A DNA stretch of 64,000 nt from a plasmid: sequence record NZ_CP029448.1; one strand, written 5' to 3'. This document shows positions 6,037 to 60,474 of this stretch, piece after piece. Positions within the stretch are counted from its first letter, which is position 1. Each line of letters opens with the position of its first letter. The notes under the pieces were generated by a model that searched no databases, was not told the origin of the DNA, and saw only the letters and a program-made list of their open reading frames with translations. The translations under genes and the position numbers were made by a program.

Positions 6037-6148
6037 TTTTAATGCTGATTTTCTTCGGGGAAATTGGCAAATAATTATTTTCTTTGCTCAATGTTACGTC
6101 TTCGGATTGTGATTTTTTTAAATGATAGTAAACAATGTGGGGTTATTA

Positions 6149-6522
6149 TGAGAAAAATTATGCATAGTGTTATAATAGGAACAGCCCTTGTTTTATCTAC
6201 CAGTGTAATAGCTGGTTCTGACGGTGTTGAACATGCCATGAAGATGATGAATAAAAGCTACCGCGCAGCACTTAAGGAGGAGGACGTTACATCTTTCAGG
6301 AAAGATATGCAGGATCTGAAATCAACAGCAGAGTCCATCTTGAACGGCCCGGTAGAGGGGTATGACAGGGAAACGTATGTTGCAGGTATGTCACTTCTGA
6401 TTGATGAGGTAACTGCTGTTGAAAGTACCGCTGAAAAGGAAGGTCTTGACGCTGGGAAAATTGCAGCACAGAAACTGGGCAGTATGATGAGAAAATACCA
6501 TAATAAACTTGGCGTTGACTGA
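6149..6522 (+). CDS. periplasmic cytochrome b562-family protein (putative)
   Basis: Signal peptide, then a four-helix-bundle-like sequence. Met near the N-terminus (HAMKMMNKSY) and C-terminal RKYHNK parallel the CybC heme ligands. Confidence 0.45.
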
Positions 6523-6959
6523 ACCGGGAACTATCAGGAGAAAGTAGATATGCTGGAAAGATATCCCGGAACTGACATGATATAGCTGCTTGTATTAGAA
6601 TGGATAGTTATGCCCTGGTGAAGAAATTATAATACGTTATCTTATCTGCTCAGTACATATAAAAATGTTGGGGTCGCAAACATGCTTACCGATGCTACAT
6701 TGCCTCAACATAAGCTAAGTCCTATTGATGTTGCACGGGGCGGATATACCCGCTTCGTGCTTCACTGAAACATACTGATGATCTCTTGGCTGGAAAAACA
6801 CTTCTTCATGGTAATCTCTTCATATTACTGATGTGATGTACTATAGGTTTAGATACCATTCTCTGATTAAAGAGTATTGTTTAGTTCCGATAAGTTAAGG
6901 TTTCGTTAATAAAAAGGCATGTTGATTTGGTCAACCACCCCTAACAAAGTGGCTAAATT

Positions 6960-7236
6960 ATGAATGAAAATTTACGTAATGCTCTCCCTCACAAAGACAC
7001 ACCATTTCTACGTGTGCTTCATATCATCTTAGCTGTATTGATTTTATTGCAGATTGTTAGTTCAAATCTTACCGAAAGCGATGCTCTCAGTGACTATACT
7101 CTCACAGGGTTCGTTACATGGTTCCATGTTATCACTGGATTATCACTGATTGTTCTTGGGTTAATCATGCTTGCATGGATGCTAACACAACGAGGATTTC
7201 ATTACTATTTTGCTTGGCTGACTCTTGATTTTCGAG
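6960..7236 (+). pseudogene. His-containing integral membrane protein (b-type-cytochrome-like), 3' end truncated at the IS5 junction
   Basis: ORF runs straight into the IS5 left end at 7237. Remaining ORF is 99 aa with 3 TM helices. Confidence 0.35.
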
Positions 7237-9852: not shown

Positions 9853-10012
9853 AGGTTAACCTATTGTTTTATTTTAATTATTAGGTGCTGCATTTACAGC
9901 TACTCCAATGATCATGGGGCTGATGGTCGATGGAACGCAATACCAAGTAGATTGATTGCATAAAGTTCCTTCAATTCCGATCTGCCCTCCCGTTTTCACA
10001 TCCTACTTCAGT

Positions 10013-12079: not shown

Positions 12080-13467
12080 TCAGCATCCTCGCTATTATTT
12101 GAAATTGTTGTACGATATAAACCCCTTGATTTCAATAGTTCTGCCATACGAATTGATGATCTGTCTATCGCTGCTTTAGGAAGATAAAAATCCACTAAAT
12201 TCTTGATATCTCCAAAGTGGTCACCAAGTAATAAAGATATTTGAGCTTTTCTTCCACTTTCGTTTACAAAGCGCATAATTCTACCGAGTGGATCGCCGTA
12301 GGCAATTATTACTATATGCGTTGAGGGTATTGTCAGCATGTCAATAATAACACGGTTTATATGTTCATCTCCAAAACTATAACCATATGTTACCAAAGTA
12401 CTATTAGGACGACATGTTGCAGATGCTAAGTCTCTGAATAGTTCAACATAAGGGTATTCTGATGTTTCTCGGTCTTTAACCGAGTTTGGATAAATCATTA
12501 ATTGATGATAGTTCGCTGCTCCAGCAGCCTCCACTTGTAAAAAGGGTTCCACCGAACTCGCACCAAAAGGTAATCCAAATCGCCTTATGGCTCCTTCGGT
12601 AGTATACCAGTCCAATGAGCCATGTAATTTAGTAAAGCGCGCCACACCTTCCAAATATCTTGGTTCACCACGAATACCCGGTGGATTATAATGATAGTCG
12701 ACTTCTAGTCGCGAAGATCTGAAAATAGGCGCTATAGTACCAACAAATCTGTCAATTAGTCGAATACCTGCTATTTCAGCTCCTGCTTCAATTATCCTGT
12801 CGTAATTCGTCGTGAAAATATGTAATCGATCCCTTGTCGCTGTTCGACTTGAAAAACTCATCAAAAAACTTACTAAATAATTAAACGTTTGTGTTTTTAA
12901 ATCGTTTTTTGCATCGCGAATTAACTTTTCCCCATTACTAACTGAATCTGAGAATAATTTCAAACATCTTGTTAGCTCATTATTTAACTCAACTAACTCA
13001 CTTTTTAAATTTCGATATGGGAGAGCACCAGGAGGCGGTTCTGGAAGTGGGAGATTTTGCGCAGTTAAAATCTCTAATCCTTTAATTAACTCATTAATTG
13101 AACGGATTTGGTCTTCAATATTACCTCTTCCTCTTCCTGAGGCTTCAGCTGTTTTAGCTACATAACTATCTATTTCAGCCTTGCAAACTTTGAGATCATT
13201 AATCCATCCCATGCCTTGAGGTTTCGTGCCTGTCGCTGACTCTTGGATTGCTGAACTAAGTCCCGCGCCAATAAGTATATTTAGGTGTTCAGACTGAAAA
13301 AGAGCAGTTAACCAAGGTTCTATTCTTAAACGCAAAAAATCAGGAGTGATTTTATCTCCTGGTTTTGCCCATGAGCAGTGTCCAACAACTTTAAATGCAC
13401 CAACTTCGCTGTGTGGATCCAACTGAACCGGAGACTGGTCATCTCCAAGCTTTAAGTATTGACTCAC
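12076..13467 (-). CDS. SIR2-family (NADase-type) protein of the Sir2-HerA anti-phage system
   Basis: Motifs NILIGAGLS, TTNYDRIIE and YGYSFGDEH are typical of defense-associated SIR2 domains. 463 aa. Confidence 0.75.
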   Translation of the reverse strand: MSQYLKLGDDQSPVQLDPHSEVGAFKVVGHCSWAKPGDKITPDFLRLRIEPWLTALFQSEHLNILIGAGLSSAIQESATGTKPQGMGWINDLKVCKAEIDSYVAKTAEASGRGRGNIEDQIRSINELIKGLEILTAQNLPLPEPPPGALPYRNLKSELVELNNELTRCLKLFSDSVSNGEKLIRDAKNDLKTQTFNYLVSFLMSFSSRTATRDRLHIFTTNYDRIIEAGAEIAGIRLIDRFVGTIAPIFRSSRLEVDYHYNPPGIRGEPRYLEGVARFTKLHGSLDWYTTEGAIRRFGLPFGASSVEPFLQVEAAGAANYHQLMIYPNSVKDRETSEYPYVELFRDLASATCRPNSTLVTYGYSFGDEHINRVIIDMLTIPSTHIVIIAYGDPLGRIMRFVNESGRKAQISLLLGDHFGDIKNLVDFYLPKAAIDRSSIRMAELLKSRGLYRTTISNNSEDAE

Positions 13468-13474
13468 TTTGAAT

Positions 13475-14044
13475 TCATCCTTCGTTAGAGTTAATAGCTG
13501 TTTTTCTTTTCAGCCTAAAATAGGTCGCCCTTGATATACCCGTTTTTTCCATTACTTCCTTAACTTGTACGTCCTTATTAATCAATTCATTAGCTAATTC
13601 AGCCTTCTTGTGAGGCTTTCTTCCGAATTTGACCCCCTTAATCATAGCGGTCTTCCGCCCATCGTTAGTTCGCTCCAAGATCCTTTCTCGTTCCGCCTCG
13701 GCAACAGCTGCTAGTATCTGGATAACCATTTTTCCCATTGTGCCTTCAGTACTAAGACCATTCTCTAGAAATCGGATAGCGATGCCTTTTTTATAGCAAG
13801 TATCCACAATACGAATCATATCAGCGGTATTACGTCCTAGACGATCCATTTTAGTACAGAGGATGATGTCATCTTTCTCCGCTCTGGCAAGGAGTCTCTG
13901 TAGCCCTGCACGCTCATCAGTTGCTCCTGACATCATGTCAGTAAATACACGATCATCCCTCACTCCCGCTGTTTTGAGTTCAGTAATCTGGCTCGTCAGT
14001 TTCTGATGGCTGGTTGATACTCTTGCATATCCTAATAATGCCAT
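13475..14044 (-). CDS. tnpR: serine recombinase / resolvase TnpR
   Basis: MALLGYARVSTSHQ... has the catalytic Ser motif. C-terminal HTH. Confidence 0.9.
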   Translation of the reverse strand: MALLGYARVSTSHQKLTSQITELKTAGVRDDRVFTDMMSGATDERAGLQRLLARAEKDDIILCTKMDRLGRNTADMIRIVDTCYKKGIAIRFLENGLSTEGTMGKMVIQILAAVAEAERERILERTNDGRKTAMIKGVKFGRKPHKKAELANELINKDVQVKEVMEKTGISRATYFRLKRKTAINSNEG

Positions 14045-26368: not shown

Positions 26369-27178
26369 ATGAAAGACATGATGATTGATATTGAAGCGGA
26401 ACGATTTAATGAATGGCTTGAGGAAAATTACCCGGATATTGTCCCTGAGTCTGAAGCATGGGAGGAGGCCGCGAACCTGTATTACTGGGAGCAGGAGGCG
26501 CTTGCTGATCAGGCTCAGTGGGATCATGAACATGGACTGTTCGTGGTTTCCCTGAACGATGTTCATCAGCGTCACCGGCACGCAAGACAGGAGCTGCAGA
26601 AGCTACATGCCCTGCTCGACAGAGAGCAGCCAGAACTGGTGTACAGGATGTCTTTCGTCCATGCAGTGACTGTCATGGAAGCATACCTGATGTACTGCGC
26701 CAGGGCTCTGCTGGAACATGACTGGCCTCTTAAACGCTTCAGGGATGAATATTACCTGAATTCAGAACGCGTCAAAAAAAACAAAAAGCAGTCTTTGCGT
26801 GAGATGGAACTTGATATGTTCAGGCCCGCCGCACGCAATTATGTTTCCCGAATGACGTTTCATAACGTTAAAACCATTGAGCGCTATTTCAGCGCCGTGC
26901 TGCATACTCCGCCCGTCTGGCCGGTTAAGCCGCTGGACATTATTGCAGACTGGCGAAACGACCTTGTGCACCGTAACGGGGTGGATGAGCATGATGTGCC
27001 AAGAGGTATATCAGCGCAGCAGCTACAGAATGCTCTTCAGAGAGTGTCTGACCTTATAGAGGCAGCACACCGTTCCCTGTGCCAGGAGGTGGACTATTTC
27101 GGAAACTGGCGTAGTGAGGAAAACCGGGAAATCATTGCTTCAGCGCTGAACATATCAACAGACAGAGATGTATCCTGA
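26369..27178 (+). CDS. hypothetical protein with a HEPN-type Rx4H motif
   Basis: C-terminal IADWRNDLVHRNG fits the HEPN R-x4-H signature. 269 aa. Confidence 0.4.
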   Translation: MKDMMIDIEAERFNEWLEENYPDIVPESEAWEEAANLYYWEQEALADQAQWDHEHGLFVVSLNDVHQRHRHARQELQKLHALLDREQPELVYRMSFVHAVTVMEAYLMYCARALLEHDWPLKRFRDEYYLNSERVKKNKKQSLREMELDMFRPAARNYVSRMTFHNVKTIERYFSAVLHTPPVWPVKPLDIIADWRNDLVHRNGVDEHDVPRGISAQQLQNALQRVSDLIEAAHRSLCQEVDYFGNWRSEENREIIASALNISTDRDVS

Positions 27179-27742
27179 TAACTGGAATCATTATACTCGT
27201 ACTGCAGACAGTCTCGGTTGCTCAGTAGCCGGTGGTCATCGATTACCCTGCCGTGCTGGCGGTGGAAGTGAGCTTACTACGGCCCGGATCTTTAGCACAA
27301 AATGCTGCTGTCGAAGCTCTGGAACACTGGTGCGCGCATTAACCAGGCGCTGAGCGATAGGCCAAGAGTGCCAATTTTGCCCGTCAGTTTTCCCGTAACT
27401 ATGCTCTTTCTAACGTAACTCTTTACACCATTTGTAAGAAGTTCAATGAAGTCGCTAAAGAAAAATGGTTTGAGCCGCTTGAAGAAGAGACGCACGTTTC
27501 TGAATACGAATAGCAGAAGCCATACTGAAGCATGAACGTTCGAGATGATATTGAGCTGAAAATATTGACGACAAAGAACAAGCGAGAAGCAGTTATCCTA
27601 ATAGTTGCAACTATTAATAAAAATTGAAACACTCAATACTTTTATTCTATGATCTCCATCGCAATTTCTATCAATTTAAATACAATTATCAAAAATCAAT
27701 TATAATGTAATAATAAAACCAATTAATAGCGTTGAGGAAATT

Positions 27743-29415
27743 ATGAGCATAAACCCTATAATAATAAGGCAAAATTTTAAAATCGGCGAATTGGACGCTG
27801 AATCAGACACACTTCTCTTGGAAAACTGTTTTATTGATAGTGGTTATCTTTCTAAACTATTAAACCCATCTGATACATCATCTATAGTTATAGGAAGAAC
27901 AGGCGCAGGAAAAAGTGCTTTGTTGCACATGGTGGCAAACAAAGCACATAAATATAAAAAACTTGACCCTAATGATATTTCAATAGGTTTTCTAGAGCAT
28001 TCAGATATAATTTCATTTTTTGAAGAGTTAAATGTTAATCTTGATATGTTTTATAAAGTATTATGGCGACATATTTTAATTATGGAATTATTAAAAATAC
28101 GCCATGACATTAAGAGTGAATCTGATACGAATAGCTTTTTCTCAAACTTGCTTAGCAGGCTAAAAAAGATGAGATAAAACGAAAAGCCCTTGAGTATTTT
28201 AGGGAGTGGGGAGATAAATTTTGGATAGATACTGACACCCATCTTAGGGAAATAACATACAAACTGGAACGTGATACTAAGGCTTCGATTGGCACAGAAT
28301 ACAGTGCTGTAAATCTTAGTGCTGAATATGCAAAAAAACTAACCGAAGAACAAATACATGATGTTAAGAAACGAGCAAATGAGGTTGTCAGTAGGTTACA
28401 GATTCAAAAACTTAATGAAATACTTTCATTGCTTGCTGAATATTCTTTTGATGACCCACAAAAAAACTATTACATCATTATTGATCAACTGGATGATAAC
28501 TGGGCGGAAAATGATACAAGATATAAATTTATAAGAGCGCTAATTGAAGAGATTAAGGTGTTTCGTAAAATTAAAAATATCAAAATAATAGCTGCTTTAC
28601 GCCTGGACCTTTTACGATCAGTATTTAATATTACAAGAGGCTCTGGTTTTCAGGAGGAAAAATATGAGTCATATATACTTGATATAAAATGGACCTCTCA
28701 ACAACTAACCGAATTAGTCCAAAAACGAGTGCGAGAGGTATACAAAAGACAATATACTCGAGAAGATGTTACTATTAAAGATATATTTCCAAAAGCAAAG
28801 GGGGGGCATTTAGGCATCACCCCTATTGAATATATAATTGAAAGAACATTATTTCGACCAAGAGACGTTTTACAATACGTGAATGAGTGTTTTAATGTGG
28901 CACTTAACAGAGAAAGAATATCATGGGATTCAATTCATAAAGCGGAGGCAGTCTATTCCTTAAAGCGCCTGAGATCTCTAAAAGAAGAATGGGGGGATAT
29001 ATACCCTTCCTTTGAGGAAACAATTGAAATACTGAGAAATCTTCCTGATAAATTTAGTAGAACATCTATGTCAAAAAACACTATAGACGCGGTATTAAGT
29101 GAATTATCCATTCAAAATACTACTGATCCATGTGCTATTACAGCAAACAAATTTTTAGAAGGAGAATCAAGAGAACAGGATGTCATTAATGAAATAATGC
29201 TTTGTCTTTATACAGTTGGAATTGTAGGTTTCAAGATTAGTAGCCTGACACCTTACAAATGGGCATTCAGAGACAGTACACCAACAACAAAAAATGAAAT
29301 CAAACGTGCCAGTCTGATGAAAATTCATAAGATGCTCCATTCAGCTCTAGATATAAGAATAATTACTGGAAATCGCTATGAACGCGATGATGAGGAAGAT
29401 ATTGAGTGTTCTTAA
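27743..29415 (+). pseudogene. STAND/KAP-like P-loop NTPase, split by a -1 frameshift at an A6 run (28162-28167)
   Basis: Walker A IVIGRTGAGKSALL. Walker B YYIIIDQLDDNW, about 215 aa downstream of Walker A in the fused reading. A stop in frame 1 (28175) is followed by a long open frame opening at 28156. Together about 556 aa. Very AT-rich. Confidence 0.55.
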
Positions 29416-29639
29416 TTATATTATCTTTTGGTTTATAACATTTTTTGCCAGAAACAAGGATTATTCCCACACACACTAAGAAACTTTACTTTGAAGATGG
29501 ACGGATGACAGCAGGAGCCGTCCTCTTTTCTGTTACTTACATCCTGACATTCCTCCATTTATCCCAAATATTCAGTACTGGACGCACCTTTGAGTATCAT
29601 TCAAACTGATTGTAAGATTTAAACTTACAATCGTGAGGC

Positions 29640-29912
29640 TTGTATATCGCCAGAACAATAACAGTGGATCTCGGACACGAACTCCGTGACTTCATAGAAT
29701 ATCTCATTGAATCAGGTGATTATCGTACGCAGAGTGAGGTGATCCGCGAGTCACTTCGTCTCCTTCGCGAGAAACAGGCAGAATCACGTCTCCAGACCCT
29801 GCGGAATTTACTGGCAGAAGGCCTGAGCAGCGGCGAGCCTGTGGTGTGGGAAAAGGACACGTTCCTGAAAAAAGTTAAAGCAGGCACAAAGCCTGCCGGT
29901 GAAAAACGTTAA
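29640..29912 (+). CDS. parD: ParD-family (COG3609, RHH) antitoxin
   Basis: ARTITVDLGHELRDFIEYLIESGDYRTQSEVIRESLRLLREKQAESRLQTLRNLL. Confidence 0.7.
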   Translation: MYIARTITVDLGHELRDFIEYLIESGDYRTQSEVIRESLRLLREKQAESRLQTLRNLLAEGLSSGEPVVWEKDTFLKKVKAGTKPAGEKR

Positions 29913-30185
29913 ACTCACACCTAAAGCCAGTCAGGATCTTGAGGATATCTGGTATTACGGCTACCACCATTTTCGGTGAGGAGAGGGCCGACAGATATAT
30001 TAATCAGCTCTCCGCTTTTTTTTTGTTTTGGAGTGCTCATAATATCGGTACTCCCCGTCCTGAACTGGGGGAATACATATTGGCACTACCCGTTGAATGA
30101 CATATGCTTTATTTTCTGCAGACTGATACTGAAATTATTATTATCCGTATATTAAGTCAGCATCAGGATGCCGGCCGTCATCTCA
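29909..30185 (+). pseudogene. ParE-family toxin remnant (frameshift at a T-run near 30011-30021 and an internal stop)
   Basis: Fragments LTPKASQDLEDIWYYGYHHFGEERADRYINQLSAFF and FLQTDTEIIIIRILSQHQD in different frames. Confidence 0.5.
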
Positions 30186-49027: not shown

Positions 49028-49549
49028 TTGGAGAGTCCCATGTCCAGACGTAAGTACACCTTTCAACAGCGCCTCGAAGTGGTTATGCACTATTTCGCTA
49101 CCGATGAAGGCTATCGTTTAACTTCAGCTCGCTTTAACGTTCCCAGAACCCAGGTAAGAATATGGGTTGCAGCCTATGATGCTTATGGAGAAGAAGGTCT
49201 GAAGCCCAGGGATAAGGGCGTATCAATCGCTCCCGATATCAGAGTCGAAGCCGTAAAGGCTGTACTGACGGGGCAGATTTCCCAGACGCAGGCTGCAGCG
49301 AAATTTAACGTCGCGGGTTCGGCCTCTGTTGGGAAGTGGATGAAGGTCTTCAGCGAACATGGAGAGGAAGGGCTTCGTTCTCTCCGTATTGGCAAAAAAA
49401 GGGCACTTCATATGATTGATGATCCTGTTGCGCTTGAGGCAGCACTGGAGCGTTCGAAAGATAAACGTATTCAGGACCTTGAACAAAAAGTCCGCCGCCT
49501 GGAATTACGGATACTTTATTTAAAAAAGTTGAAAGCCTTAGTTCGATAA
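49028..49549 (+). CDS. IS150-like transposase OrfA
   Basis: MESPMSRRKYTFQQRLEVVMHYFATDEGYRLTSARFNVPRTQVRIWVAAYDAYGEEGL... Confidence 0.85.
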   Translation: MESPMSRRKYTFQQRLEVVMHYFATDEGYRLTSARFNVPRTQVRIWVAAYDAYGEEGLKPRDKGVSIAPDIRVEAVKAVLTGQISQTQAAAKFNVAGSASVGKWMKVFSEHGEEGLRSLRIGKKRALHMIDDPVALEAALERSKDKRIQDLEQKVRRLELRILYLKKLKALVR

Positions 49550-49605
49550 GGGATAAGGTCAGAATTATCGACGAACTGAGGCAGCACTATTCGTTCGAGC
49601 AGCTT

Positions 49606-50409
49606 TTGCAGATAGCTCAGATACCCAGGAGTACGTTTTACTATCACCTGAAAGCACTCCGCTCTCCGGGAAAATACGATGAAGTGAAATGCAGAATCAA
49701 AGAGATCTATGATGAGAACCAGGGCCGCTATGGTTATCGGCGGATAGCACTGGCGCTCAGAAGAGAGGGAGGAGCGTTGAACCACAAAGTGGTTCAACGT
49801 CTGATGAATGTGCTTCGTCTCAAAGCTGCGATAAGAGTTAAGCGTTACAGTTCATGGCGGGGTGAACATGGGCGCGCTGCTGACAATATCCTGCAACGAA
49901 ACTTCAAAGCCAGCCGGCCCAATGAAAAATGGGTCACCGATGTCACTGAATTCGCTGTAAATGGCCGGAAACTCTATCTTTCTCCCATCATCGACCTCTT
50001 CAATAACGAAGTTATTTCCTACAGTATTTCAGAACGCCCAACCATGCCGATGATTGATGAGATGTTGATTAAGGCATTTGCCAGAATGGATCCAAACAGC
50101 AAGCCAGTTCTTCATTCAGATCAGGGCTGGCAGTACCGTCATCGATGGTACCAGTATCAGCTCCGCGATTTTGGCGTCACGCAAAGTATGTCCCGCAAAG
50201 GTAACTGCCTGGATAACGCCTGTGCAGAATGCTTTTTCGGGACTTTAAAATCAGAATGCTTTTACCTCGGTAAATTTAAGGATATAGATGAACTTAAGGA
50301 TGCTATTGAGGATTACATTCGGTACTACAACACCCGGCGAATCAGCCTTAAATTTAACGGTCTCAGCCCAGTTGAATACCGCCTGAAATTCCATCCATTG
50401 CGCATTTAA
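49606..50409 (+). CDS. IS150-like transposase OrfB (DDE; expressed by frameshift from OrfA)
   Basis: DDE motifs: HSDQGWQY, CLDNACAECFFGTLKSE. Confidence 0.85.
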   Translation: MQIAQIPRSTFYYHLKALRSPGKYDEVKCRIKEIYDENQGRYGYRRIALALRREGGALNHKVVQRLMNVLRLKAAIRVKRYSSWRGEHGRAADNILQRNFKASRPNEKWVTDVTEFAVNGRKLYLSPIIDLFNNEVISYSISERPTMPMIDEMLIKAFARMDPNSKPVLHSDQGWQYRHRWYQYQLRDFGVTQSMSRKGNCLDNACAECFFGTLKSECFYLGKFKDIDELKDAIEDYIRYYNTRRISLKFNGLSPVEYRLKFHPLRI

Positions 50410-50626: not shown

Positions 50627-50977
50627 ATGAAACTAACTACCCTACAACTCTTCAAATACCTCTCCGATGAAACCCGTTTGGGTATCGTGTTGCTGCTCAG
50701 GGAGATGGGGGAGCTGTGCGTGTGTGATCTCTGCACTGCATTGGAACAGTCTCAGCCCAAGATCTCCCGCCATCTGGCAATGCTCCGGGAAAGTGGACTA
50801 TTGCTGGATCGCAAACAGGGCAAGTGGGTTCATTACCGCCTTTCTCCGCAAATTCCTTCCTGGGCTGCTCAAGTAATTGAGCTGGCCTGGTTAAGCCAAC
50901 AGGACGACGTGCAAGCCATCGCCCGTAAGCTGGCATCAGCAAACTGCTCTGGCAGCGGTAAGGCTGTTTGTATCTAA
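50627..50977 (+). CDS. arsR: arsenical resistance operon repressor ArsR
   Basis: ELCVCDLC As(III) site, near-identical to R773 ArsR. Confidence 0.95.
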   Translation: MKLTTLQLFKYLSDETRLGIVLLLREMGELCVCDLCTALEQSQPKISRHLAMLRESGLLLDRKQGKWVHYRLSPQIPSWAAQVIELAWLSQQDDVQAIARKLASANCSGSGKAVCI

Positions 50978-51024
50978 AAAATTTGCCTTAATATATGTGA
51001 TTTTTCGAATGTGAGGTATTCAGA

Positions 51025-51387
51025 ATGAAAACGTTAACGGTGTTTGACCCGGCAATGTGCTGCAGTACCGGCGTATGTGGCTCAGATGTCGATCAGGTTC
51101 TGGTTGATTTTTCTGCTGATGTGCAGTGGCTGAAAGGACGTGGCGTACAGGTTGAACGTTACAACCTGGCGCAGCAGCCCATGAGTTTTGTTCAGAATGA
51201 GAAAGCGAAAGCATTCCTCGAAGCATCTGGTGCAGAAGGGCTTCCGTTACTGCTGTTGGACGGTGAAACGGTGATGGCAGGGCGATACCCAAAACGCGCC
51301 GAGCTGGCTCGCTGGTTCGGTATTCCGCTGGAGAAGGTAGGGCTAGCTCCCATCAGTTGCTGTGGTGGTAATACTTCCTGTTGCTGA
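51025..51387 (+). CDS. arsD: arsenic metallochaperone ArsD
   Basis: MKTLTVFDPAMCCSTGVCGSDVD, C-terminal CC pairs. Confidence 0.95.
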   Translation: MKTLTVFDPAMCCSTGVCGSDVDQVLVDFSADVQWLKGRGVQVERYNLAQQPMSFVQNEKAKAFLEASGAEGLPLLLLDGETVMAGRYPKRAELARWFGIPLEKVGLAPISCCGGNTSCC

Positions 51388-51404
51388 GTATGTCAGGAGG
51401 ACAT

Positions 51405-53156
51405 ATGAAATTCTTACAGAATATCCCGCCTTACCTGTTTTTTACTGGCAAGGGAGGTGTAGGAAAAACTTCCATTTCCTGCGCGACGGCTATTCGCCTT
51501 GCCGAACAGGGTAAGCGGGTTTTGCTTGTCAGTACCGACCCAGCCTCCAATGTCGGTCAGGTATTCGATCAGGCTATCGGTAACACGATTCGCCCTGTGA
51601 CAGCAGTTCATGGACTTTCCGCACTGGAGATTGATCCGCAGGACGCCGCCCAGCAATACCGCGCCAGAATCGTTGACCCTATTAAAGGTCTTTTGCCTGA
51701 TGACGTTGTTAACAGCATCAGTGAACAGCTTTCAGGAGCCTGTACCACTGAGATTGCGGCGTTTGATGAGTTCACCGGCTTATTGACAGACGCTTCTCTG
51801 CTGACCCGCTTCGATCACATCATTTTTGATACTGCCCCAACGGGCCACACTATTCGCCTTCTTCAGCTTCCCGGAGCCTGGAGCAGCTTCATCGAAAGTA
51901 ACCCGGATGGTGCTTCCTGTCTTGGCCCAATGGCCGGGCTGGAAAAGCAACGCGAGCAATATGCTCATGCAGTTGAGGCATTATCCGATCCTGAACGTAC
52001 TCGCCTGGTGCTGGTCGCGCGATTGCAAAAATCCACATTGCAGGAAGTTGCCCGCACTCATGAAGAACTGTCAGCCATTGGCCTTAAAAATCAGTATCTC
52101 GTCATTAATGGTGTGCTGCCTAAAGCCGAAGCTGAACATGACGCCCTGGCCGCTGCGATATGGCAACGAGAGCAGGAGGCGCTGGCAAATCTTCCTTCCG
52201 GGTTATCTGAGTTGCCGACAGATACCCTATTACTACAGCCAGTCAATATGGTTGGTGTTTCAGCATTGAAGGGACTGCTGGATACCCGTTCTGAGACATT
52301 ACCGCTCCCGGTAACGAACATCCTGTACACGCCTGAAAACTTATCACTCTCTGGCCTGGTCGATGATATCGCTCGCAGTGAACACGGCCTGATTATGCTG
52401 ATGGGAAAAGGTGGTGTAGGGAAAACCACGATGGCTGCGGCTATAGCCGTCAGGCTGGCAGACATGGGATTTGACGTGCATCTCACGACCTCTGATCCTG
52501 CTGCGCACCTGAGTACAACGCTGAACGGCAGCCTCAAAAACCTGCAGGTCAGCCGCATCAACCCTCACGATGAAACCGAACGCTATCGCCAGCATGTTCT
52601 TGAGACGAAGGGAAGAGATCTGGACGAAGCAGGGAAACGGCTACTGGAAGAGGATTTACGCTCTCCCTGTACTGAAGAAATTGCCGTGTTTCAGGCCTTT
52701 TCCAGGGTGATTCGTGAAGCGGGTAAACGGTTTGTGGTCATGGATACTGCCCCTACGGGACATACGCTGTTGCTGCTGGATGCGACCGGGGCTTACCACC
52801 GAGAGATTGCCAAAAAAATGGGGAGTAAAGGTCATTTTACTACCCCAATGATGCAGCTTCAGGATCCGGATAGAACCAAAGTTCTGCTGGTTACGCTTCC
52901 TGAAACCACACCGGTGCTGGAAGCGGCAAACCTGCAGGCTGACCTTGAAAGAGCGGGGATTCATCCGTGGGGCTGGATTATCAATAACAGCCTTTCCATT
53001 GCGGATACGCGTTCTCCGTTGCTTTGCCAGCGTGCTCGTCAGGAACAGCCTCAGATTGAGGCTGTTAAGAATCAGTACGCTAACCGTATAGCGCTTGTTC
53101 CGGTGCTGACGTCAGAGCCAGCTGGTATTGAAAAGCTCAGAGAGTTGATGAGTTAA
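51405..53156 (+). CDS. arsA: arsenite-transporting ATPase ArsA
   Basis: Two GKGGVGKT Walker A motifs and DTAPTGH. R773-like. Confidence 0.95.
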
Positions 53157-53203
53157 TTTTTTTGCATATACAGGGCGGCAAAGTCGCCCTGTCAGGAGGT
53201 TTT

Positions 53204-54493
53204 ATGTTACTGGCCGGCGCTATTTTTGTCCTGACCATTGTTTTGGTTATCTGGCAACCAAAGGGATTAGGGATCGGCTGGAGTGCAATGCTGGGCGCGG
53301 GACTGGCTCTGATATCTGGCGTTGTGCATGTGGGGGATATTCCGGTGGTGTGGAATATCGTCTGGAACGCTACGGCGACCTTTATTGCCGTAATTATTAT
53401 CAGCCTGCTGCTTGATGAGTCCGGCTTTTTCGAATGGGCAGCGCTGCACGTTTCCCGATGGGGTAACGGTCGTGGACGTTTGCTCTTTACGTATATCGTT
53501 CTGCTCGGTGCGGCGGTGGCGGCACTGTTTGCCAACGATGGTGCGGCACTTATTCTGACGCCGATAGTCATCGCCATGCTGCTGGCATTAGGGTTCAGCA
53601 AAGGTACGACACTGGCATTTGTCATGGCAGCCGGTTTTATTGCCGATACGGCCAGCCTGCCGCTTATCGTGTCGAACCTGGTGAATATAGTCTCGGCGGA
53701 CTTTTTTGGTCTGGGATTCACCGAATATGCGTCGGTGATGGTTCCGGTTGATATTGCCGCTATTATCGCCACGCTGGTGATGCTGCATCTGTTCTTCCGC
53801 AAGGATATTCCACCGACTTACGACCTGGCGCTCCTGAAAGCTCCGACAAAAGCAATAAAAGATCCTGCTACGTTCCGCACCGGCTGGATAGTTTTGATTC
53901 TTCTGTTGGTAGGTTTTTTCGTCCTCGAGCCGCTTGGGATTCCCGTTAGTGCGATTGCGGCTGTTGGTGCTGTGATCCTGTTTGCGGTAGCTAAACGAGG
54001 CCATGCCATTAACACCGGAAAAGTGCTGCGTGGCGCACCCTGGCAAATCGTCATCTTCTCATTGGGGATGTACCTGGTGGTCTACGGTCTGCGCAACGCC
54101 GGGCTAACCGAATACCTTTCAGGAGTGCTGAACGTACTGGCGGATAAAGGACTCTGGGCTGCGACGCTGGGTACTGGCTTCCTGACGGCTTTCTTGTCTT
54201 CCATCATGAACAACATGCCTACCGTGCTGGTTGGCGCTCTTTCTATCGATGGAAGCACTGCAACTGGCGTTATTAAAGAGGCGATGATCTACGCCAACGT
54301 GATTGGCTGCGATCTGGGCCCGAAAATTACACCTATAGGTAGCCTGGCAACGCTGCTCTGGCTGCATGTCCTTTCACAGAAGAATATGACCATCACCTGG
54401 GGATACTATTTCCGCACCGGGATCGTCATGACTCTGCCTGTGCTGTTTGTAACGCTGGCAGCGCTGGCGTTACGTCTCTCTTTCACTTTGTAA
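53204..54493 (+). CDS. arsB: arsenite efflux permease ArsB
   Basis: 429 aa, near-identical to R773 ArsB from [13 protein letters not shown]. Confidence 0.95.
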
Positions 54494-54505
54494 TGAGATA
54501 CTGAT

Positions 54506-54931
54506 ATGAGCAACATCACCATTTATCACAACCCGGCCTGCGGCACGTCGCGTAATACGCTGGAGATGATCCGCAACAGTGGTAATGAACCGACCGTTAT
54601 TCATTACCTTGAAAATCCACCTTCACGCGATGAGCTGGTCAAACTCATTGCAGATATGGGCATTTCAGTCCGGGCTTTGCTGCGCAAAAACGTCGAGCCT
54701 TATGAAGAACTGGGGCTTGCTGAAGATAAGTTTATTGACGGTGAGTTAATCGATTTTATGCTTCAGTATCCGATCCTGATTAACCGTCCGATTGTGGTAA
54801 CACCGCTGGGAACGCGCCTTTGCCGCCCTTCCGAAGTGGTGCTGGATATTCTTCCGGATGCGCAAAAAGGCGCATTTGCTAAGGAAGACGGCGAGAAAGT
54901 CGTTGATGAAACAGGTAAGCGATTGAAATAA
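54506..54931 (+). CDS. arsC: glutaredoxin-dependent arsenate reductase ArsC
   Basis: MSNITIYHNPACGTSRNTLEMI... Confidence 0.95.
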   Translation: MSNITIYHNPACGTSRNTLEMIRNSGNEPTVIHYLENPPSRDELVKLIADMGISVRALLRKNVEPYEELGLAEDKFIDGELIDFMLQYPILINRPIVVTPLGTRLCRPSEVVLDILPDAQKGAFAKEDGEKVVDETGKRLK

Positions 54932-54965
54932 AGATAAAGGGGGCAGACGCCCCCTTATTCCTGCC

Positions 54966-55502
54966 TCAGAGCATAAGATCTGAATCTTCTGGCAGAGTAC
55001 GATTCCCTTCACCAAGTTTCATTTGCAGCAAAACCGTGTCAAGCCAGCGGCCATGTTTGAAACCAATGTCTTTTAATGTGCCTATTTCAGTAAATCCTGT
55101 GCGGATATGAAGCGCAACAGAAGCGACGTTAGCGCTGTCACCTACGACAGCAATCATCTGACGATATCCCTGGGACTCGGCCCATTTTAATGCATGATTG
55201 AGCAGTGCTTTTCCGACGCCCTGGCGCTGATAAGTCGGATCAATATATATCGAATTTTCAACTGTAAACCGATAGGCATGGCGTTCGCGGTAACGGGAAA
55301 TATAACAGTAGCCGATGACCGTATCGCCATGCAGAGCGACATACCAAGGAAATCCCCGAGACTGAATGCTCCTCAGTCGGTTAAGCATTTCCTGCGTATC
55401 CGGAGGTTCGGTTTCGAAGCTACCTGTACCATGCAGAACATGGTGAGCATAGATATTGCGTATCGCGGTAATGTGCTGTTCTTCAGCATTAATAATGTGC
55501 AT
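54966..55502 (-). CDS. GNAT (phosphinothricin-acetyltransferase-type) N-acetyltransferase, ArsN1-like
   Basis: GNAT motifs RQGVGKALL. Located at the 3' end of the minus-strand ars cluster, where arsN1 (arsinothricin acetyltransferase) genes occur. Confidence 0.55.
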   Translation of the reverse strand: MHIINAEEQHITAIRNIYAHHVLHGTGSFETEPPDTQEMLNRLRSIQSRGFPWYVALHGDTVIGYCYISRYRERHAYRFTVENSIYIDPTYQRQGVGKALLNHALKWAESQGYRQMIAVVGDSANVASVALHIRTGFTEIGTLKDIGFKHGRWLDTVLLQMKLGEGNRTLPEDSDLML

Positions 55503-55626
55503 CGTGTTACTCCAGTAATGATGCTTTACAAGCTACCGGAATTCGCGACAGAAGGTTAAATACTTAAACTTATAGCCTGTATAAGTAAAAGTTTGACTGC
55601 AGGAAATGGGGCCGCAGCCCCATCTT

Positions 55627-57384
55627 TTAGCCTGCCATTTTTGCCAGCAGAGCTGCACCCACTGGTTCTTCATTCTGCAGCGGTGTTAATGCAATACGCT
55701 CTGCAAACTGCTCTGTAACGTCATTTATCAGAGGCAGTTCGCGACTGGCTCGGGTTACGAGGAACGGTGAGGACGGTTTCGCAGCAGCCAGACTGCTATT
55801 GATTACCCATGCCCATGGTTCAATTTCAGCCCGACGCAAATCCTGCTGCAGGTTTGCTGCTTCCAGTACAGGTGTCGTTTCGGCAAGCGTCACGATAATC
55901 ACCTTCGTCTTCTCCGGGTCCTGCAATAGCATCATTGGTGTCAACAAATTGTCATGCGTTTGCCCCATCTGGCGCACCATTTCCCGGTGATAGGCTCCTG
56001 TTGCATCCAGTAGCAGAAGCGTATGACCTGTTGGGGCTGTATCCATAATGACAAAATGGTCGTCTGCTTCTTTGATGATCCGAGAGAATGCCTGGAAGAC
56101 GGCGATCTCTTCAGTGCATGGTGAGCGGAGGTCTTCCTCAAGCACCGCCAGCCCTTCTGCATCTAATCCTTTGCCCTGATTTTCCAGGACAAAGCGGCGA
56201 TAACGTTCTGTCTCTACCTTCGGGTCGATACGGCTGACCTGAAGATTGGGCAGCGAGCCATCCAGTGTGTAAGACAGATGTGCTGCCGGATCGGATGTAG
56301 TCAGGTGGACCTTATGACCACGTTTCGCCAGCGATACCGCGACTGACGCTGCAATGGTCGTTTTACCTACACCGCCTTTACCCATCGTCATGACCAGCCC
56401 ATTGCCAGTCTGGCTCAGTTCATCAACCAGTGAAGACAGTTTCGGTAAATCCAGAACATTCAACGTGGTATCAGGGAGAGCCGGTGCGGCTTTGCTCTGG
56501 GTAAATAGCTCCCGCAGGGCTTCCAGGCCGACCAGGTTAAATGGCTTCAGATACAGCTGCGAGCGGGGAAGATTAGCCAGATTATCAGGCATTGCCTGTA
56601 ATGCTTTTTCTTCCCGAACCAGAATACTTTGCGCCAGTGGGTCATCCTCACCAGCAAACGGCGGCAGCACACCATTGATGGCAAGGTGTTGATGCTGCAA
56701 ACCAATAGCAGAAAGCTCATCGTGCGTATGAGAAACCTCTTTCAGCGTTGAAGCCTGAGCTCGGGCAACCAGCACTAAGCGTGTGAGAGCTGCGTCGGAC
56801 AGCGCTTTAACCGCATCGGAGTACTGGTGCTGTTGTTTCTCAAGCCCTACCAGAGGTCCAAGGTTTGCAGCGGCATCAGGGTTCGCTTCGAGATAACCGC
56901 TCCAGGCTCCCGGCAATTCAAGCATGCGGATGGTGTGACCGGTTGGCGCGGTATCAAATACGATATGGTCATATTTTTCTCGCAGCTCATGATTGGTCAG
57001 CAGACCAGTAAACTCATCAAACGCAGCGATTTCTGTGGTGCATGAGCCGGAGAGCTGCTCTTCAATACTGCTGACCACATCGGCTGGCATCAGCCCGCGA
57101 ACCGGGTCGAGCACGCGGTCACGATAAGCCTGTGCTGCAGCCATCGGATCAACTTCCATAGCGGCAAGATTTTCTACGGTACTGATATCTGTGATTCGGT
57201 GGCCGATAGTCTGGCTAAATACCTGGCCGACATTGGAAGCCGGATCGGTACTCACCAGAAGCGTTCTCTTACCCTGATCGGCCAGCCATACCGCAGTAGC
57301 ACATGCCAGGGATGTTTTACCCACACCACCTTTGCCAGTGAAGAAGATGAACGGGGGAATGTCTTTTAAAAATGGAATATTCAT
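55627..57384 (-). CDS. arsA: second, divergent arsenite ATPase ArsA
   Basis: 585 aa. GKGGVGKTS twice and DTAPTGH twice. Clearly diverged from copy 1. Confidence 0.9.
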   Translation of the reverse strand: MNIPFLKDIPPFIFFTGKGGVGKTSLACATAVWLADQGKRTLLVSTDPASNVGQVFSQTIGHRITDISTVENLAAMEVDPMAAAQAYRDRVLDPVRGLMPADVVSSIEEQLSGSCTTEIAAFDEFTGLLTNHELREKYDHIVFDTAPTGHTIRMLELPGAWSGYLEANPDAAANLGPLVGLEKQQHQYSDAVKALSDAALTRLVLVARAQASTLKEVSHTHDELSAIGLQHQHLAINGVLPPFAGEDDPLAQSILVREEKALQAMPDNLANLPRSQLYLKPFNLVGLEALRELFTQSKAAPALPDTTLNVLDLPKLSSLVDELSQTGNGLVMTMGKGGVGKTTIAASVAVSLAKRGHKVHLTTSDPAAHLSYTLDGSLPNLQVSRIDPKVETERYRRFVLENQGKGLDAEGLAVLEEDLRSPCTEEIAVFQAFSRIIKEADDHFVIMDTAPTGHTLLLLDATGAYHREMVRQMGQTHDNLLTPMMLLQDPEKTKVIIVTLAETTPVLEAANLQQDLRRAEIEPWAWVINSSLAAAKPSSPFLVTRASRELPLINDVTEQFAERIALTPLQNEEPVGAALLAKMAG

Positions 57385-57404
57385 CAGTAATAGCTCCTCT
57401 GGAA

Positions 57405-57767
57405 TTAAGGCATGCGTGGAATGCTGCAGCAGCGTGGTTGCGTGCTGCCTTCACTCCAGTCCTGAGTAAGCGGAATACCTGACCAACGGGCGATATCTTC
57501 TCGCGTCGGGAGTTTGCCTGCCATCACGAGCTTCCCATCGAGCAAGGTGGCGGGGAGGGATTCCATTCCTGATGTGTTCAGGAACTCTTTGATGACAGGG
57601 GTATTCAGGAACTGCTGCGGGTTCTTCGCAAGGCTGTAACGCTGAATATCAACGCCATTCTTTTTCGCCCATTCGGCGCTGGCATTCCATTTGATGGCTT
57701 CGTTGCTGACCACAACGCTACTGGTTGCGCAGCAGCCTGCTGCTTCAAAGATCTCAATTTTTGACAT
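57405..57767 (-). CDS. arsD: divergent ArsD-like metallochaperone
   Basis: Aligns with ArsD (LPATLLDGKLVMAGKLPTREDIARWSGIPL). The Cys12-Cys13 pair is kept (AGCCATSS) but the Cys18 position is Ser. Confidence 0.7.
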   Translation of the reverse strand: MSKIEIFEAAGCCATSSVVVSNEAIKWNASAEWAKKNGVDIQRYSLAKNPQQFLNTPVIKEFLNTSGMESLPATLLDGKLVMAGKLPTREDIARWSGIPLTQDWSEGSTQPRCCSIPRMP

Positions 57768-57842
57768 GGACTGTTTACCTCAGTGTTTAGTCGATTGGCT
57801 TTACACTGAGGTAAACGAAGGTGGTGAGAAAAAGATGCGCGA

Positions 57843-58400
57843 TTAATTCATTTTTTTGTGGCAGCAGACGGGAGACGTGTCATCCGCCTCAATCTGACAA
57901 AGTTCTGTCATCGTTTCTTTCAGGTGCTTTCTGGCCCGAAGCAGTCGGGATTTAAACGCCGTAAGCGTGATTCCCAGCTCATCAGCCAGAGACTGCTGGG
58001 GCCGCCGGTTAAGGTCGGACTCTTCAATCAACCACCGATCATCTTCGGATAAAGCCTGTAATGTTTCAGGCAGGCAAATATCCAGCGTTGAGATAGCATC
58101 AGGGGATGCGTCTGTTAATGGGGTAACTTCTTCCAGCTCAACAAACTCCCTGGTGGTGCGGTACTCATCAATCAGCAGATTCCTCGCCGCCCGATATAGC
58201 CAGGCTCGCGGATTCTCCATCTCGCAGAAACTGTCTGAATGAGCGCGGGCACGCAGGAATAGCTCTTGCAGAAGGTCTGCTGCTTTTTCGCTATCGCCAG
58301 TCTTTGATGTCAGAAAGCGAGAGAGTTCGGCTTCATGTTGCCGCCAGAACACACTCATGCAGTTGTTGAATGCTGTTACATCACTCATTCCAGCCCTCAA
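57843..58400 (-). CDS. ECF-type sigma-70 family factor with Cys-containing C-terminal tail
   Basis: Region 2 ([16 protein letters not shown]) and region 4 ([28 protein letters not shown]). Ends ...[20 protein letters not shown]. Confidence 0.7.
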
Positions 58401-59110
58401 ATTTTGCTCTGATTAACCCGCCGGGAAAGTTCTTCTGCAGACTCTTTTCGTTCGCTGTAGCGATCAACGAGATAGGCTGAGTTACCTCGGGTCAGCAGAG
58501 TAAATTTCACCAGTTCTTCCATCACATCCACGATCCGGTCGTAATAAGACGACGGCTTCATGCGTCCATCTTCATCAAACTCCTGCCAGGCTTTTGCGAC
58601 AGAGGACTGATTCGGGATGGTGATCATCCGCATCCAGCGGCCAAGAATGCGCATCTGGTTTACGGCATTGAAAGACTGAGAGCCACCGCAGACCTGCATA
58701 ACGGCCAGTGTCTTACCCTGTGAAGGGCGAACTGCACCTTCTGATAACGGTATCCAGTCAATCTGGGCCTTCATGATCCCGGTCATCGCACCATGGCGTT
58801 CAGGGGAACACCACACCATCCCTTCGGACCAACGGACCAGCTCGCGCAGTTCCATGACTTTAGGATGCGAGTCAGGCGCATCGTCAGGAAGAGGCAAGCC
58901 AGATGGATTGAAGATCCGCACCTCTGCGCCCATGGCAGTCAGCAACCTTGCTGCTTCCTCTGTTGCCAGTCGACTGTATGAGCATTCACGTACAGAGCCA
59001 TACAGCATCAGGATACGGGGAGGATGGGGAATTGCAGGTACGTGGAATTTTGCCTCTGTGATGGAGGTATCGAACAGGCCTGCATCAACATTCTTAAGTT
59101 CAGTGGGCAT
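58397..59110 (-). CDS. arsH: ArsH NADPH-dependent FMN reductase
   Basis: [18 protein letters not shown]... is a typical ArsH N-terminus. 4-bp overlap with the sigma gene. Confidence 0.85.
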
Positions 59111-59111
59111 A

Positions 59112-59435
59112 TTATTCTCCGACGTCGTTATTGGTATTGTGCAGTCCATCTGCGCCTGTGCAACATTCTTCCGTCAGAAAGGCAATCAGCGCACTAAGTT
59201 TTTCATAGCAGGCATGGCAATACAGAGTTCTTCCCTGACGTTCCTGACGAACCAGCGATACTGATATCAGGGATGAAATATGATGACTCAGTGTCGATGC
59301 TGGGATCTCAAGTTGCTTCTGTAGATCGCCCACGGGCAGGCCCTGAGGCCCTGCTTTGACCAATTTTTTGTAAATCCCTAGCCTTGTAGCATGCCCAAGT
59401 TCTTTCAGCACCGTCGACGCACTGATAAGTTCCAT
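59112..59435 (-). CDS. arsR: second ArsR/SmtB-family repressor
   Basis: [16 protein letters not shown]. Cys residues at the C-terminal end (CHACY...EECC), a different arrangement from copy 1. Confidence 0.75.
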
Positions 59436-59734
59436 ACTCGTTCTCACAATCAATGATTCTATATTTCCAGAATAATGGAAATGTTTTTTTCTTTCAACCT
59501 ACAATCTGTCTGGTTGGGGAGTTGTTGAGAGCGGCTAAGTAATCGTTGCGAGCCATCATGTTTGTAGGACTAATGTGATGGATGGATTAACCTCCTTCCT
59601 TTGTCTAACGCTGCTTTTAGCGCAAAGTGAACTTCAGAACTTCGCATACCAAAGAAGATAAATAATTGTATAGCGTTTGCTATACATGAATATTATGCTA
59701 TCTTTGTAAAGCAAATGCTATACAGAGGTGTCTC

Positions 59735-60474
<740 letters not shown>

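Follow-up and report, generated by a model that had tools for sequence, protein, structure and literature searches.

Why should a plasmid arsenic island that already holds a complete arsRDABC operon also carry a second ArsD/ArsA pair, placed behind an extracytoplasmic function (ECF) sigma factor and accompanied by no transporter? In textbook accounts arsenic resistance is regulated by repressors of the ArsR family, ArsD acting as a second and minor one, and an alternative sigma factor has no part in it. The island studied here occupies positions 50627–59435 of a 64-kb stretch of plasmid DNA (sequence record NZ_CP029448.1; "the window" below means this whole stretch) and consists of the plus-strand arsRDABC operon and a convergent minus-strand cluster, arsR2-arsH-sigma-arsD2-arsA2-GNAT. 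An earlier note on this DNA had proposed that regulation here goes beyond ArsR alone, and this proposal is now well supported by a cognate ECF-type promoter predicted directly ahead of arsD2. The answer favoured here, held with rather more confidence than doubt, is that of a mobile island of Enterobacterales whose two convergent units share the carrier ArsB, the second unit working as a cascade in which ArsR2 would govern the sigma factor and the sigma factor would govern arsD2-arsA2; as a hypothesis, the sigma factor would also sense metalloids through its own thiols.

The sigma factor and its predicted promoter

The sigma factor is a protein of 181 residues encoded at 57843–58388 on the minus strand and recognised by both Pfam and NCBIfam models. 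In a 185-residue reading that begins at a TTG codon, it matches PF04542 (Sigma70_r2, 45.2 bits, cut-off 24) at residues 19–84 and PF08281 (Sigma70_r4_2, 36.1 bits, cut-off 25.7) at residues 109–160; the match to TIGR02937 scores 64.6 bits against a cut-off of 42.9. Regions 2 and 4 are present and regions 1 and 3 are absent, which places the protein among the ECF (group 4) sigma factors. The TTG codon, at 58400, is an unlikely start. Ahead of the ATG at 58388, at a distance of 6 nt, stands a GAGG Shine-Dalgarno sequence; this ATG coincides with the RefSeq start and yields the N-terminus MSDVTAFN..., common to all orthologues. With this start arsH and the sigma gene lie 8 nt apart and do not overlap. 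The 4-bp overlap described previously arises only with the TTG start and falls away, and with it goes the translational coupling of the two genes, an artefact of the start-codon call. Both genes are probably co-transcribed.

The best NCBIfam match of the protein, TIGR02959 (SigZ), covers the full length at 136.7 bits and stays under the equivalog cut-off of 168.65. The sequence is 95% identical to ECF24_1034, an E. coli plasmid sigma factor of the Rhodius et al. 2013 library (PMC3817407 supplement), and 30% identical to B. subtilis SigZ (ECF24_69), in an alignment that extends to the first tail cysteine. The identity to ECF24_1034 settles the group assignment as ECF24, the SigZ group, now merged into ECF238. 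The latter unites ECF24 with ECF44 (CorE, CorE2) and is described as having no anti-sigma factor and a Cys-containing tail of ~20 residues (PMC7826278). The window sigma agrees with this description, showing a short Cys-containing C-terminal extension and no adjacent anti-sigma gene, its flanks being arsH and arsD2 only. A CorE-like identity in the strict ECF44 sense was considered and rejected. CorE-like proteins carry a CxC motif between σ2 and σ4.2 and a Cys-rich domain of 28–38 residues with six cysteines (PMC4937300); both the motif and the six-Cys domain are missing here, so the protein is SigZ-like and not strictly CorE-like.

The cysteine-bearing tail noticed from the raw sequence is indeed present, with three cysteines within the last 18 residues. 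C105 is placed at the start of region 4 (in ICLPETL), and C164, C175 and C176 are placed in the tail. Among 16 homologues C105 is invariant, C164 and C176 are found in at least 90%, and C175 is kept down to ~37% identity. At E ≤ 1e-10 an exhaustive HMMER search returned 912 representatives of clusters formed at 50% identity; many of the nearest full-length sequences show the tail pattern CQVRFD..G.VCC. The AlphaFold2 model (mean pLDDT 81) presents two helical domains connected by a disordered linker. The fused anti-sigma sensor suggested in the earlier note finds no counterpart in the protein, which shows no sign of such a domain and whose tail of ~18 residues is predicted to be disordered. 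Another role for the cysteines is plausible by analogy with CorE/CorE2 and with the arsenite sites of ArsR proteins, namely direct metalloid sensing, in which C105, C164, C175 and C176 would make the activity of the sigma factor depend on As(III), Sb(III) or methylarsenite. Arsenite sites of the "vicinal pair plus one" kind are known in ArsR proteins.

The genomic company of the sigma family was surveyed in a genome-wide scan that gave 79 related loci from other species (sigma identity 25–46%), in which the neighbouring open reading frames (ORFs) were clustered and representatives annotated. In 15 of the 79, mainly from Proteobacteria, the gene right after the sigma gene encodes a PF03773 "ArsP_1" permease, often followed by an MTH895/ArsE-type thioredoxin-like protein. 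Thirteen others (Firmicutes, Chloroflexi, Bacteroidota and others) have in this place an arsenite methyltransferase gene (ArsM, 340–352 bits, cut-off 263), and two a DUF2703 protein gene, while several further loci hold an ArsP_1, ArsM or DUF2703 gene elsewhere in the stretch. The sigma gene lies inside arsR-acr3-arsC-arsD-arsA clusters at six loci (L006, L007, L026, L034, L035, L072). Relatives also stand beside the arsenite oxidase AioA (1258 bits) and AioXSR-like genes (L008, L036) and beside ArrA/ArxA-like molybdoenzymes (L010, L020, L022, L026), which suggests that, besides resistance, the family has a link to arsenite oxidation islands. An ars-type neighbour was found in 58 of the 79 loci and a strict arsenic gene (ArsM, Acr3, ArsA, ArsD, ArsC, ArsH, AioA or ArxA-like) in 35.

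These neighbourhoods bear on the idea that the sigma factor senses general thiol or oxidative stress via disulfides and is tied to arsenic only because arsenic causes such stress. The conserved cysteines would suit that role, as would the thioredoxin-like ArsE-type and DUF2703 proteins encoded nearby; however, the neighbours are specifically arsenic genes and not general redox genes, with ArsM above its curated cut-off, Acr3, ArsDA, AioA and ArxA-like proteins among them, and the idea is considered very improbable. Klebsiella and Citrobacter plasmids carry a second sigma factor of this family, with 40% identity and the tail CQIRLDEYGRVCCFTPK, next to another ars operon. In Klebsiella NZ_CP085104.1 (L211, 7001–8945) it is followed by the same promoter motif as described below, an ArsP_1-type permease gene and a thioredoxin-like gene, and it is divergent from an arsR-arsC-arsD-arsA-arsB-arsC-arsC operon. 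Cross-talk between both sigma modules on enterobacterial plasmids is conceivable.

The spacers between sigma and permease genes share a block, GCATCC-TTTT-N11-CGTCTTC, which was generalised to the search pattern GC[AG]TC[CTG]TT[TC]-N12-CGT (the family motif is also written GC[AG]TCYTTT-N12-CGTCT). Over the 1.03 Mb of the 79 loci the sigma strand carries 66 copies of this motif and the opposite strand two, against a shuffled mean of 1.1 per strand, and at least one copy is present in 57 loci. Thirty-two copies fall within 250 nt past the sigma stop codon and 11 a short way ahead of the sigma gene, and the genes that have the motif directly ahead encode an ArsP_1 permease, ArsM, a DUF2703 protein or the sigma factor itself. 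As far as sequence comparison can tell, such a distribution marks the motif as an ECF promoter specific to the group.

The window holds the corresponding element in the 75-nt spacer between the sigma gene and arsD2. The predicted ECF24-type promoter of arsD2-arsA2 (57811–57838, minus strand) begins 4 nt past the sigma stop codon and is composed of a −35 element GCATCT (57833–57838), a 15-nt spacer and a −10 element CGTTTAC (57811–57817). When both strands of the 64-kb window are searched, the strict pattern has a single match, at 57815–57838 on the minus strand, where 0.04 are expected. With up to one mismatch allowed, the spacer site is still the only match in the window, and none is seen upstream of the GNAT gene, arsR2 or arsR1. 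Comparison of nine orthologous spacers, with sigma identities as low as 50%, shows a conserved −35 element, GCATCY or in Chania GAATCC, and a conserved −10 element, TCGTTTAC, separated by drifting sequence. Two metagenome contigs (L087, L088) have a DUF6630 gene inserted after the sigma gene, and there the promoter is still placed directly ahead of arsD. Of 80 loci examined after a metagenome scan with the arsD-type promoter pattern, only 6 had a genuine sigma-arsD arrangement; the remaining ones, with no ars or sigma gene, are presumably chance matches. A cognate ECF promoter had been anticipated upstream of arsD2 or of the GNAT gene, and it was found exactly upstream of arsD2, but it is not of the anticipated AAC-N16-CGT type and reads GCATCT-N15-CGTTTAC. 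At this element, identified by comparative genomics, the anti-sigma-less ECF24/ECF238 sigma would direct RNA polymerase to transcribe arsD2-arsA2, as the second step of the proposed cascade.

The one promoter assayed with this group in the 2013 library, Pecf24_up69, gave 0.97-fold activation with both ECF24 sigmas (PMC3817407 supplement), so that no working promoter is known for ECF24. Pecf24_up69 was taken from upstream of B. subtilis sigZ; its architecture differs and it has no match to the motif, and in its construction the region upstream of the −35 element was replaced by an UP element (PMC3817407 supplement). The motif mismatch and the UP-element replacement may explain the failed activation.

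A wider proposal can be offered tentatively, as a possibility that is more doubtful than probable. The whole SigZ/ECF24 clade, which is spread across phyla, would then consist of sigma factors devoted to arsenic, whose cysteines bind As(III) or methylarsenite directly and which switch on arsP-type, arsM, DUF2703 or arsDA genes from GC[AG]TCYTTT-N12-CGTCT. If this is true, the island in the window represents a clinically widespread member, in which ArsR derepression and sigma activation are joined to a hairpin that blocks read-through translation.

Proposed control upstream of the sigma factor and in the arsD2 leader

The promoter scan revealed a sigma-70-type promoter, TTGAAA-17-TATTCT, at 59469–59497 on the minus strand, overlapped by the inverted repeat ATTTCCA-N6-TGGAAAT (59463–59482, minus strand), which on its sequence is probably the ArsR2 operator. 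A block in this area, ATTCYGGAAATATAG, is conserved upstream of arsR2 in five orthologues, including that of Chania. In the first step of the cascade, ArsR2 would control this palindrome-overlapped promoter and with it the transcription of arsR2-arsH-sigma.

Published RNA-seq values for a related plasmid, pBIC1a, grown with no arsenic, are 21 for arsR, 39 for arsH, 47 for the sigma gene (annotated "hypothetical" in the expression list), 9 for arsD and 4 and 4 for arsA (PMC6286996). The fall from 47 to 4–9 takes place across the spacer, and the presence of sigma transcript by itself does not suffice for arsDA expression. The same values touch on the explanation that the sigma factor is a mere relay, active whenever it is made, with cysteines that hold structural zinc or are idle and an arsenic response owed wholly to ArsR2 or a different ArsR at the promoter of the sigma gene. 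The conserved ArsR-type operator and sigma-70 promoter ahead of arsR2-arsH-sigma are what such a relay would need; four cysteines would suit a zinc site too, and relatives that have lost the Cys-Cys pair still have the promoter and an ars context. A relay active on synthesis is, however, hard to reconcile with a sigma transcript of 47 beside arsD and arsA at 4–9 in uninduced pBIC1a (PMC6286996). Loci of the Cedecea type, moreover, have no arsR upstream of the sigma gene, so any arsenic response there would have to come from the sigma factor itself or from a trans-acting regulator, which makes intrinsic sensing attractive for these loci, and Cys-dependent activation is established in the neighbouring ECF44 group for CorE and CorE2 (PMC4937300). 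The relay is thus regarded as unlikely, though as an alternative to be taken seriously, and a sigma factor that responds to metalloid through its own cysteines is preferred.

The leader of arsD2 contains a perfect 14-bp inverted repeat, GUUUACCUCAGUGU ... ACACUGAGGUAAAC, at 57773–57816 on the minus strand, detected by repeat search and folding. As RNA it forms a hairpin of −22.4 kcal/mol (z = −6.7 with respect to shuffles), with a left arm that reaches into the −10 element and covers the predicted transcription start, near 57803–57806, and a right arm that includes the arsD2 Shine-Dalgarno sequence GAGG (57778–57781). In nine orthologues the pairing is kept in 82% of the cells, compared with ~40% when the partner is slid, and the changes include one pair going from G-C to A-U and another from C-G to U-G. 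No Rfam family was matched in 54800–59800, even at E = 1. The position of both arms suggests how the hairpin could act: read-through transcripts would carry the whole structure, burying the ribosome-binding site, and arsD2 would be poorly translated from them, whereas transcripts started at the ECF promoter would begin inside the left arm, lack most of it and hence be translatable. The hairpin shows no sequence similarity to the candidate ArsR2 operator, which makes ArsR2 binding at this place unlikely.

The second unit, its candidate pump and its spread

The gene content and convergent orientation given in the earlier note for the minus-strand cluster are borne out by the Pfam and NCBIfam matches. 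Its first gene, arsR2 (59112–59435, minus strand), encodes an ArsR/SmtB repressor (NF033788, 60.8 bits, cut-off 55) with 33% identity to ArsR1 over 64 residues. In the alignment ArsR2 lacks the R773-type CVC site, reading GLPVGDL where ArsR1 reads ELCVCDL, and shows a conserved Cys near position 73 and a C-terminal Cys-Cys pair. ArsH (58397–59110, minus strand; TIGR02690, 405.9 bits, cut-off 292.25) is an NADPH-dependent FMN reductase that oxidises organoarsenicals. The arsD2 product (57405–57767, minus strand) belongs to the ArsD family, with 98.9 bits to the Pfam ArsD model and 82.1 bits to NF033727, under the cut-off of 90. It possesses Cys12-Cys13 and a C-terminal Cys-Cys pair; in the alignment the R773-type Cys12-Cys13-Cys18 site is incomplete, and the absence of the third metalloid-binding Cys, already remarked on, is due to a 2-residue deletion that removes Cys18 in all six clade members. 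ArsA2 (55627–57384, minus strand) is a two-domain arsenite-pump ATPase (TIGR04291, 936 bits, cut-off 650) made of two homologous P-loop halves, each with GKGGVGKT. Of its three metalloid-site cysteines Cys113 and Cys422 are retained and Cys172 is replaced by Asn, a pattern common to the whole clade, including genomes in which an ArsA2-type protein is the only ArsA. Both proteins are diverged copies of their plus-strand counterparts, as had been claimed, at 63% identity between ArsA2 and ArsA1 and 41% between ArsD2 and ArsD1.

The cluster ends with a GNAT acetyltransferase gene (54966–55502, minus strand; NCBIfam) of the phosphinothricin acetyltransferase (PAT)/ArsN1-like kind (phosphinothricin/arsinothricin type). 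The GNAT fold of this protein stands, but the arsN1-like label does not reach any curated cut-off: ArsN1b is matched at 148.1 bits (cut-off 210), ArsN1a at 94.3 (170) and phosphinothricin (PPT) acetyltransferase at 117.9 (300). The gene is missing from two islands that are otherwise identical (L003, L004) and is thus accessory. Directly 3' of the arsA2 stop codon, a GC-rich hairpin, ATGGGGC-TGCG-GCCCCAT (55606–55623, minus strand), can be read from the sequence; it has no proper U-tract, was not picked up by the terminator scan and is possibly a weak terminator or mRNA end. The arsA2-GNAT spacer also contains a 13-nt inverted repeat of 85%, ACTTTTACTTATA / TATAAGTTTAAGT, at 55562–55592 on the minus strand.

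The altered cysteine sites open the possibility that the second unit is specialised for organoarsenicals, with two-Cys sites in ArsR2, the sigma factor, ArsD2 and ArsA2 that suit methylarsenite or aromatic arsenicals and with ArsH and the GNAT enzyme as partners, and that it does not serve arsenite efflux. The loss of Cys18 from ArsD2 and of Cys172 from ArsA2 across both clades fits such a role, and so does the presence of ArsH and an ArsN1-like GNAT in the same unit. Sigma relatives, to judge from their gene order and promoters, would drive ArsP_1 permeases and ArsM, and the protein named ArsP is a methylarsenite exporter. On the other hand, ArsA2 retains both Cys113 and Cys422, the pair reported to form the high-affinity metalloid site of R773 ArsA. 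The ORF list of the island contains no ArsP, ArsK or ArsJ permease, ArsB is not known as a methylarsenite exporter, and the GNAT gene is optional. Specialisation for organoarsenicals is therefore viewed as improbable, and a role in arsenite efflux through a carrier encoded elsewhere in the island is preferred.

That carrier is not encoded in the cluster itself. The ORF list and the comparison of loci confirm that no arsB or acr3 accompanies the minus-strand genes, and ArsB is the sole arsenite carrier within the island. It belongs to the plus-strand operon, formed by arsR1 (50627–50977), arsD1 (51025–51387), arsA1 (51405–53156), arsB (53204–54493) and arsC (54506–54931), all of them on the plus strand and recognised by Pfam and NCBIfam. 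Its proteins have 95–99% identity to RefSeq-annotated arsRDABC (L001–L004), and its earlier description as a canonical R773-type arsRDABC holds. Between the convergent operons a GC-rich hairpin with T-runs (54937–54956, either strand; terminator scan and sequence) is probably a bidirectional terminator for arsC and the GNAT gene.

Evidence on the partner of ArsD2 and ArsA2 comes from four loci, in Cedecea neteri, Chania multitudinisentens and two metagenome contigs (L085, L086, L089, L155), where sigma-arsD-arsA is convergent with arsR-arsB-arsC. The arsRBC operons at these loci have no arsDA of their own, and in those genomes ArsB has no ArsD or ArsA to draw on other than the sigma-linked pair; the Chania locus also carries arsR2-arsH upstream of the sigma gene. 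Since the module faces arsDA-less arsRBC operons in these relatives, the partner pump in the window is probably the convergent ArsB, which ArsD2 and ArsA2 would energise from the opposite strand. The arrangement in the window looks, from gene order, like the same module facing an R773-type arsRDABC, which would account for both the arsDA redundancy and the absent transporter. In the Cedecea-type loci (L085, L155, L089), ~100 nt upstream of the sigma gene, the module adjoins the 3' end of a tRNA gene (...GGTTCGA..CCTTCCCCCGCCACCA), and a conserved promoter-like CTGCGTTATGCTAT block precedes the sigma gene; the junction and the block are probably an integration site and the module's own promoter, respectively.

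The second cluster (4.8 kb) matches 1,942 PLSDB plasmids, at least 1,064 of which cover at least 80% of it. Klebsiella is foremost among them, followed by Citrobacter, Escherichia, Salmonella and Enterobacter, and the cluster is present also in E. coli chromosomal islands. Both convergent operons travel together at cluster DNA identities of 80–100%, and in tblastn 1431 of 1813 matching plasmids carry the sigma gene without interruption along 80% or more of its length. Against a relative with 80% identical cluster DNA (dS ~1.1), dN/dS is 0.09 for the sigma gene, 0.07 for arsA2 and 0.09 for the GNAT gene, the values for arsD2, arsA2, arsH and the GNAT gene spanning 0.05–0.09; the second unit is thus under purifying selection.

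Deletion derivatives exist, in which the first 38 residues of the sigma factor are fused to the C-terminal end of ArsA2, beside Tn3-family tnpA/tnpR genes and an intact arsRDABC. One example lies on the Citrobacter plasmid NZ_CP056187.1 (L212, 7001–7405), annotated as "ArsA-related P-loop ATPase" (also P0072–P0087), and the same sigma'-'arsA stub is found in Klebsiella, Enterobacter and Yersinia records. These stubs could be taken as a sign that the second cluster is a redundant copy in decay that has no separate function. Yet dN/dS of 0.05–0.09 at a dS of ~1, an intact sigma gene on 1431 plasmids, a promoter conserved while its spacer drifts and a module that is the sole arsDA in Cedecea and Chania all contradict decay, which has next to no likelihood and was rejected on the dN/dS values and the number of intact copies.

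Several observations nevertheless weigh against the cascade favoured here. The −10 element of the arsD2 promoter reads CGTTTAC, where the family version is CGTCTTC. The sigma tail is disordered in the AlphaFold2 model (pLDDT <50), and the geometry of its cysteines is unreadable there. Several proteobacterial relatives have no Cys-Cys pair (their tails end VSDFVPRP) and keep the promoter, sometimes in an ars context, so the pair is not universally required. The pBIC1a values are low and come from a single uninduced condition. Covariation in the leader hairpin is weak, with just two pairs altered on both sides and 18 of 500 shuffles reaching the observed score, and the palindrome could instead be a protein operator. 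Finally, arsRDABC plasmids that carry the sigma'-'arsA stub indicate that the second unit is dispensable when arsD1A1 is present.

The surroundings of the island were also inspected. A two-ORF transposase pair (49028–50409, plus strand), with HTH domains in ORF 1 and an rve integrase core in ORF 2, is situated ~200 nt upstream of arsR1; it resembles IS3-family elements and forms one boundary of the island on this plasmid. Directly beyond arsR2 there is a TacA-type antitoxin (PF08681) and GNAT toxin pair (59735–60474, plus strand), with a 20-nt inverted repeat (90%) upstream of it at 59667–59724. Low-GC stretches (0.33–0.42) at 5000–7000, 10000–14000 and 27000–30000, in a window whose remaining GC is 0.50–0.63, suggest a mosaic origin of the plasmid.

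Comparison with known systems

The searchable literature yielded no paper characterising a sigma factor in an ars operon, and no function, regulon or promoter for the sigma factor of the window. The island itself has been sequenced and annotated thousands of times, its sigma factor has been catalogued as ECF24 since 2009–2013, and Cys-tailed ECF sigma factors that need no anti-sigma are a known kind. What appears to be new, on the comparative evidence, is an arsenic-dedicated member with a defined, predicted promoter and an ArsR-to-sigma cascade that would feed an ArsDA pair. Among plasmids of Klebsiella, Enterobacter and Citrobacter this is the most common arsenic island, and an alternative sigma factor with its own promoter inside it would amount to a second regulatory tier, which may explain the two arsDA pairs for one ArsB on such plasmids. 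For the ECF24/SigZ group, both a promoter and a physiological theme can now be predicted. If sensing is direct, the sigma-promoter pair would be a compact metalloid-responsive biosensor switch and the first metalloid-sensing sigma factor.

The closest relatives by sequence are ECF24_1034 and SigZ, with which the window sigma has in common the σ2 and σ4 layout, one Cys at the start of region 4, cysteines after the last helix and no anti-sigma. Neither of them had a known function or a working promoter, whereas here another promoter and an arsenic regulon are predicted; the tail reads C-x10-CC in this protein and CC...CxxC in Firmicutes-type ECF24 members.

By behaviour, the nearest models are CorE and CorE2 of Myxococcus xanthus (ECF44), which are activated by Cu and by Cd/Zn, respectively, via a C-terminal Cys-rich domain (PMC4937300, PMC8999054). 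They likewise have no anti-sigma, carry cysteines in the C-terminal extension and between σ2 and σ4, and are encoded beside metal-detoxification genes. The window sigma differs in having a single linker Cys and three cysteines in ~18 residues; its presumed effector is a metalloid, and its predicted target is an ATPase and chaperone pair in place of an efflux pump or an oxidase. The resemblance to OrbS of Burkholderia cenocepacia, an iron-starvation ECF sigma with an on-board Cys-rich sensor (PMC9023288), is one of concept only, in that each would use its own C-terminal Cys-rich sensing element in place of an anti-sigma; OrbS belongs to another ECF group and has another signal (iron) and another regulon.

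As regards the resistance machinery, the island and R773 arsRDABC use the same parts, an ArsD chaperone, an ArsA ATPase and an ArsB carrier, and an ArsR/SmtB repressor heads each unit. The second unit departs from R773 in that its carrier is encoded on the other strand, ArsD2 is devoid of Cys18 and ArsA2 of Cys172. In R773 one ArsR-controlled promoter serves all the genes, whereas in the island described here arsD2 and arsA2 are placed behind a predicted internal promoter for the sigma factor encoded just upstream of them.

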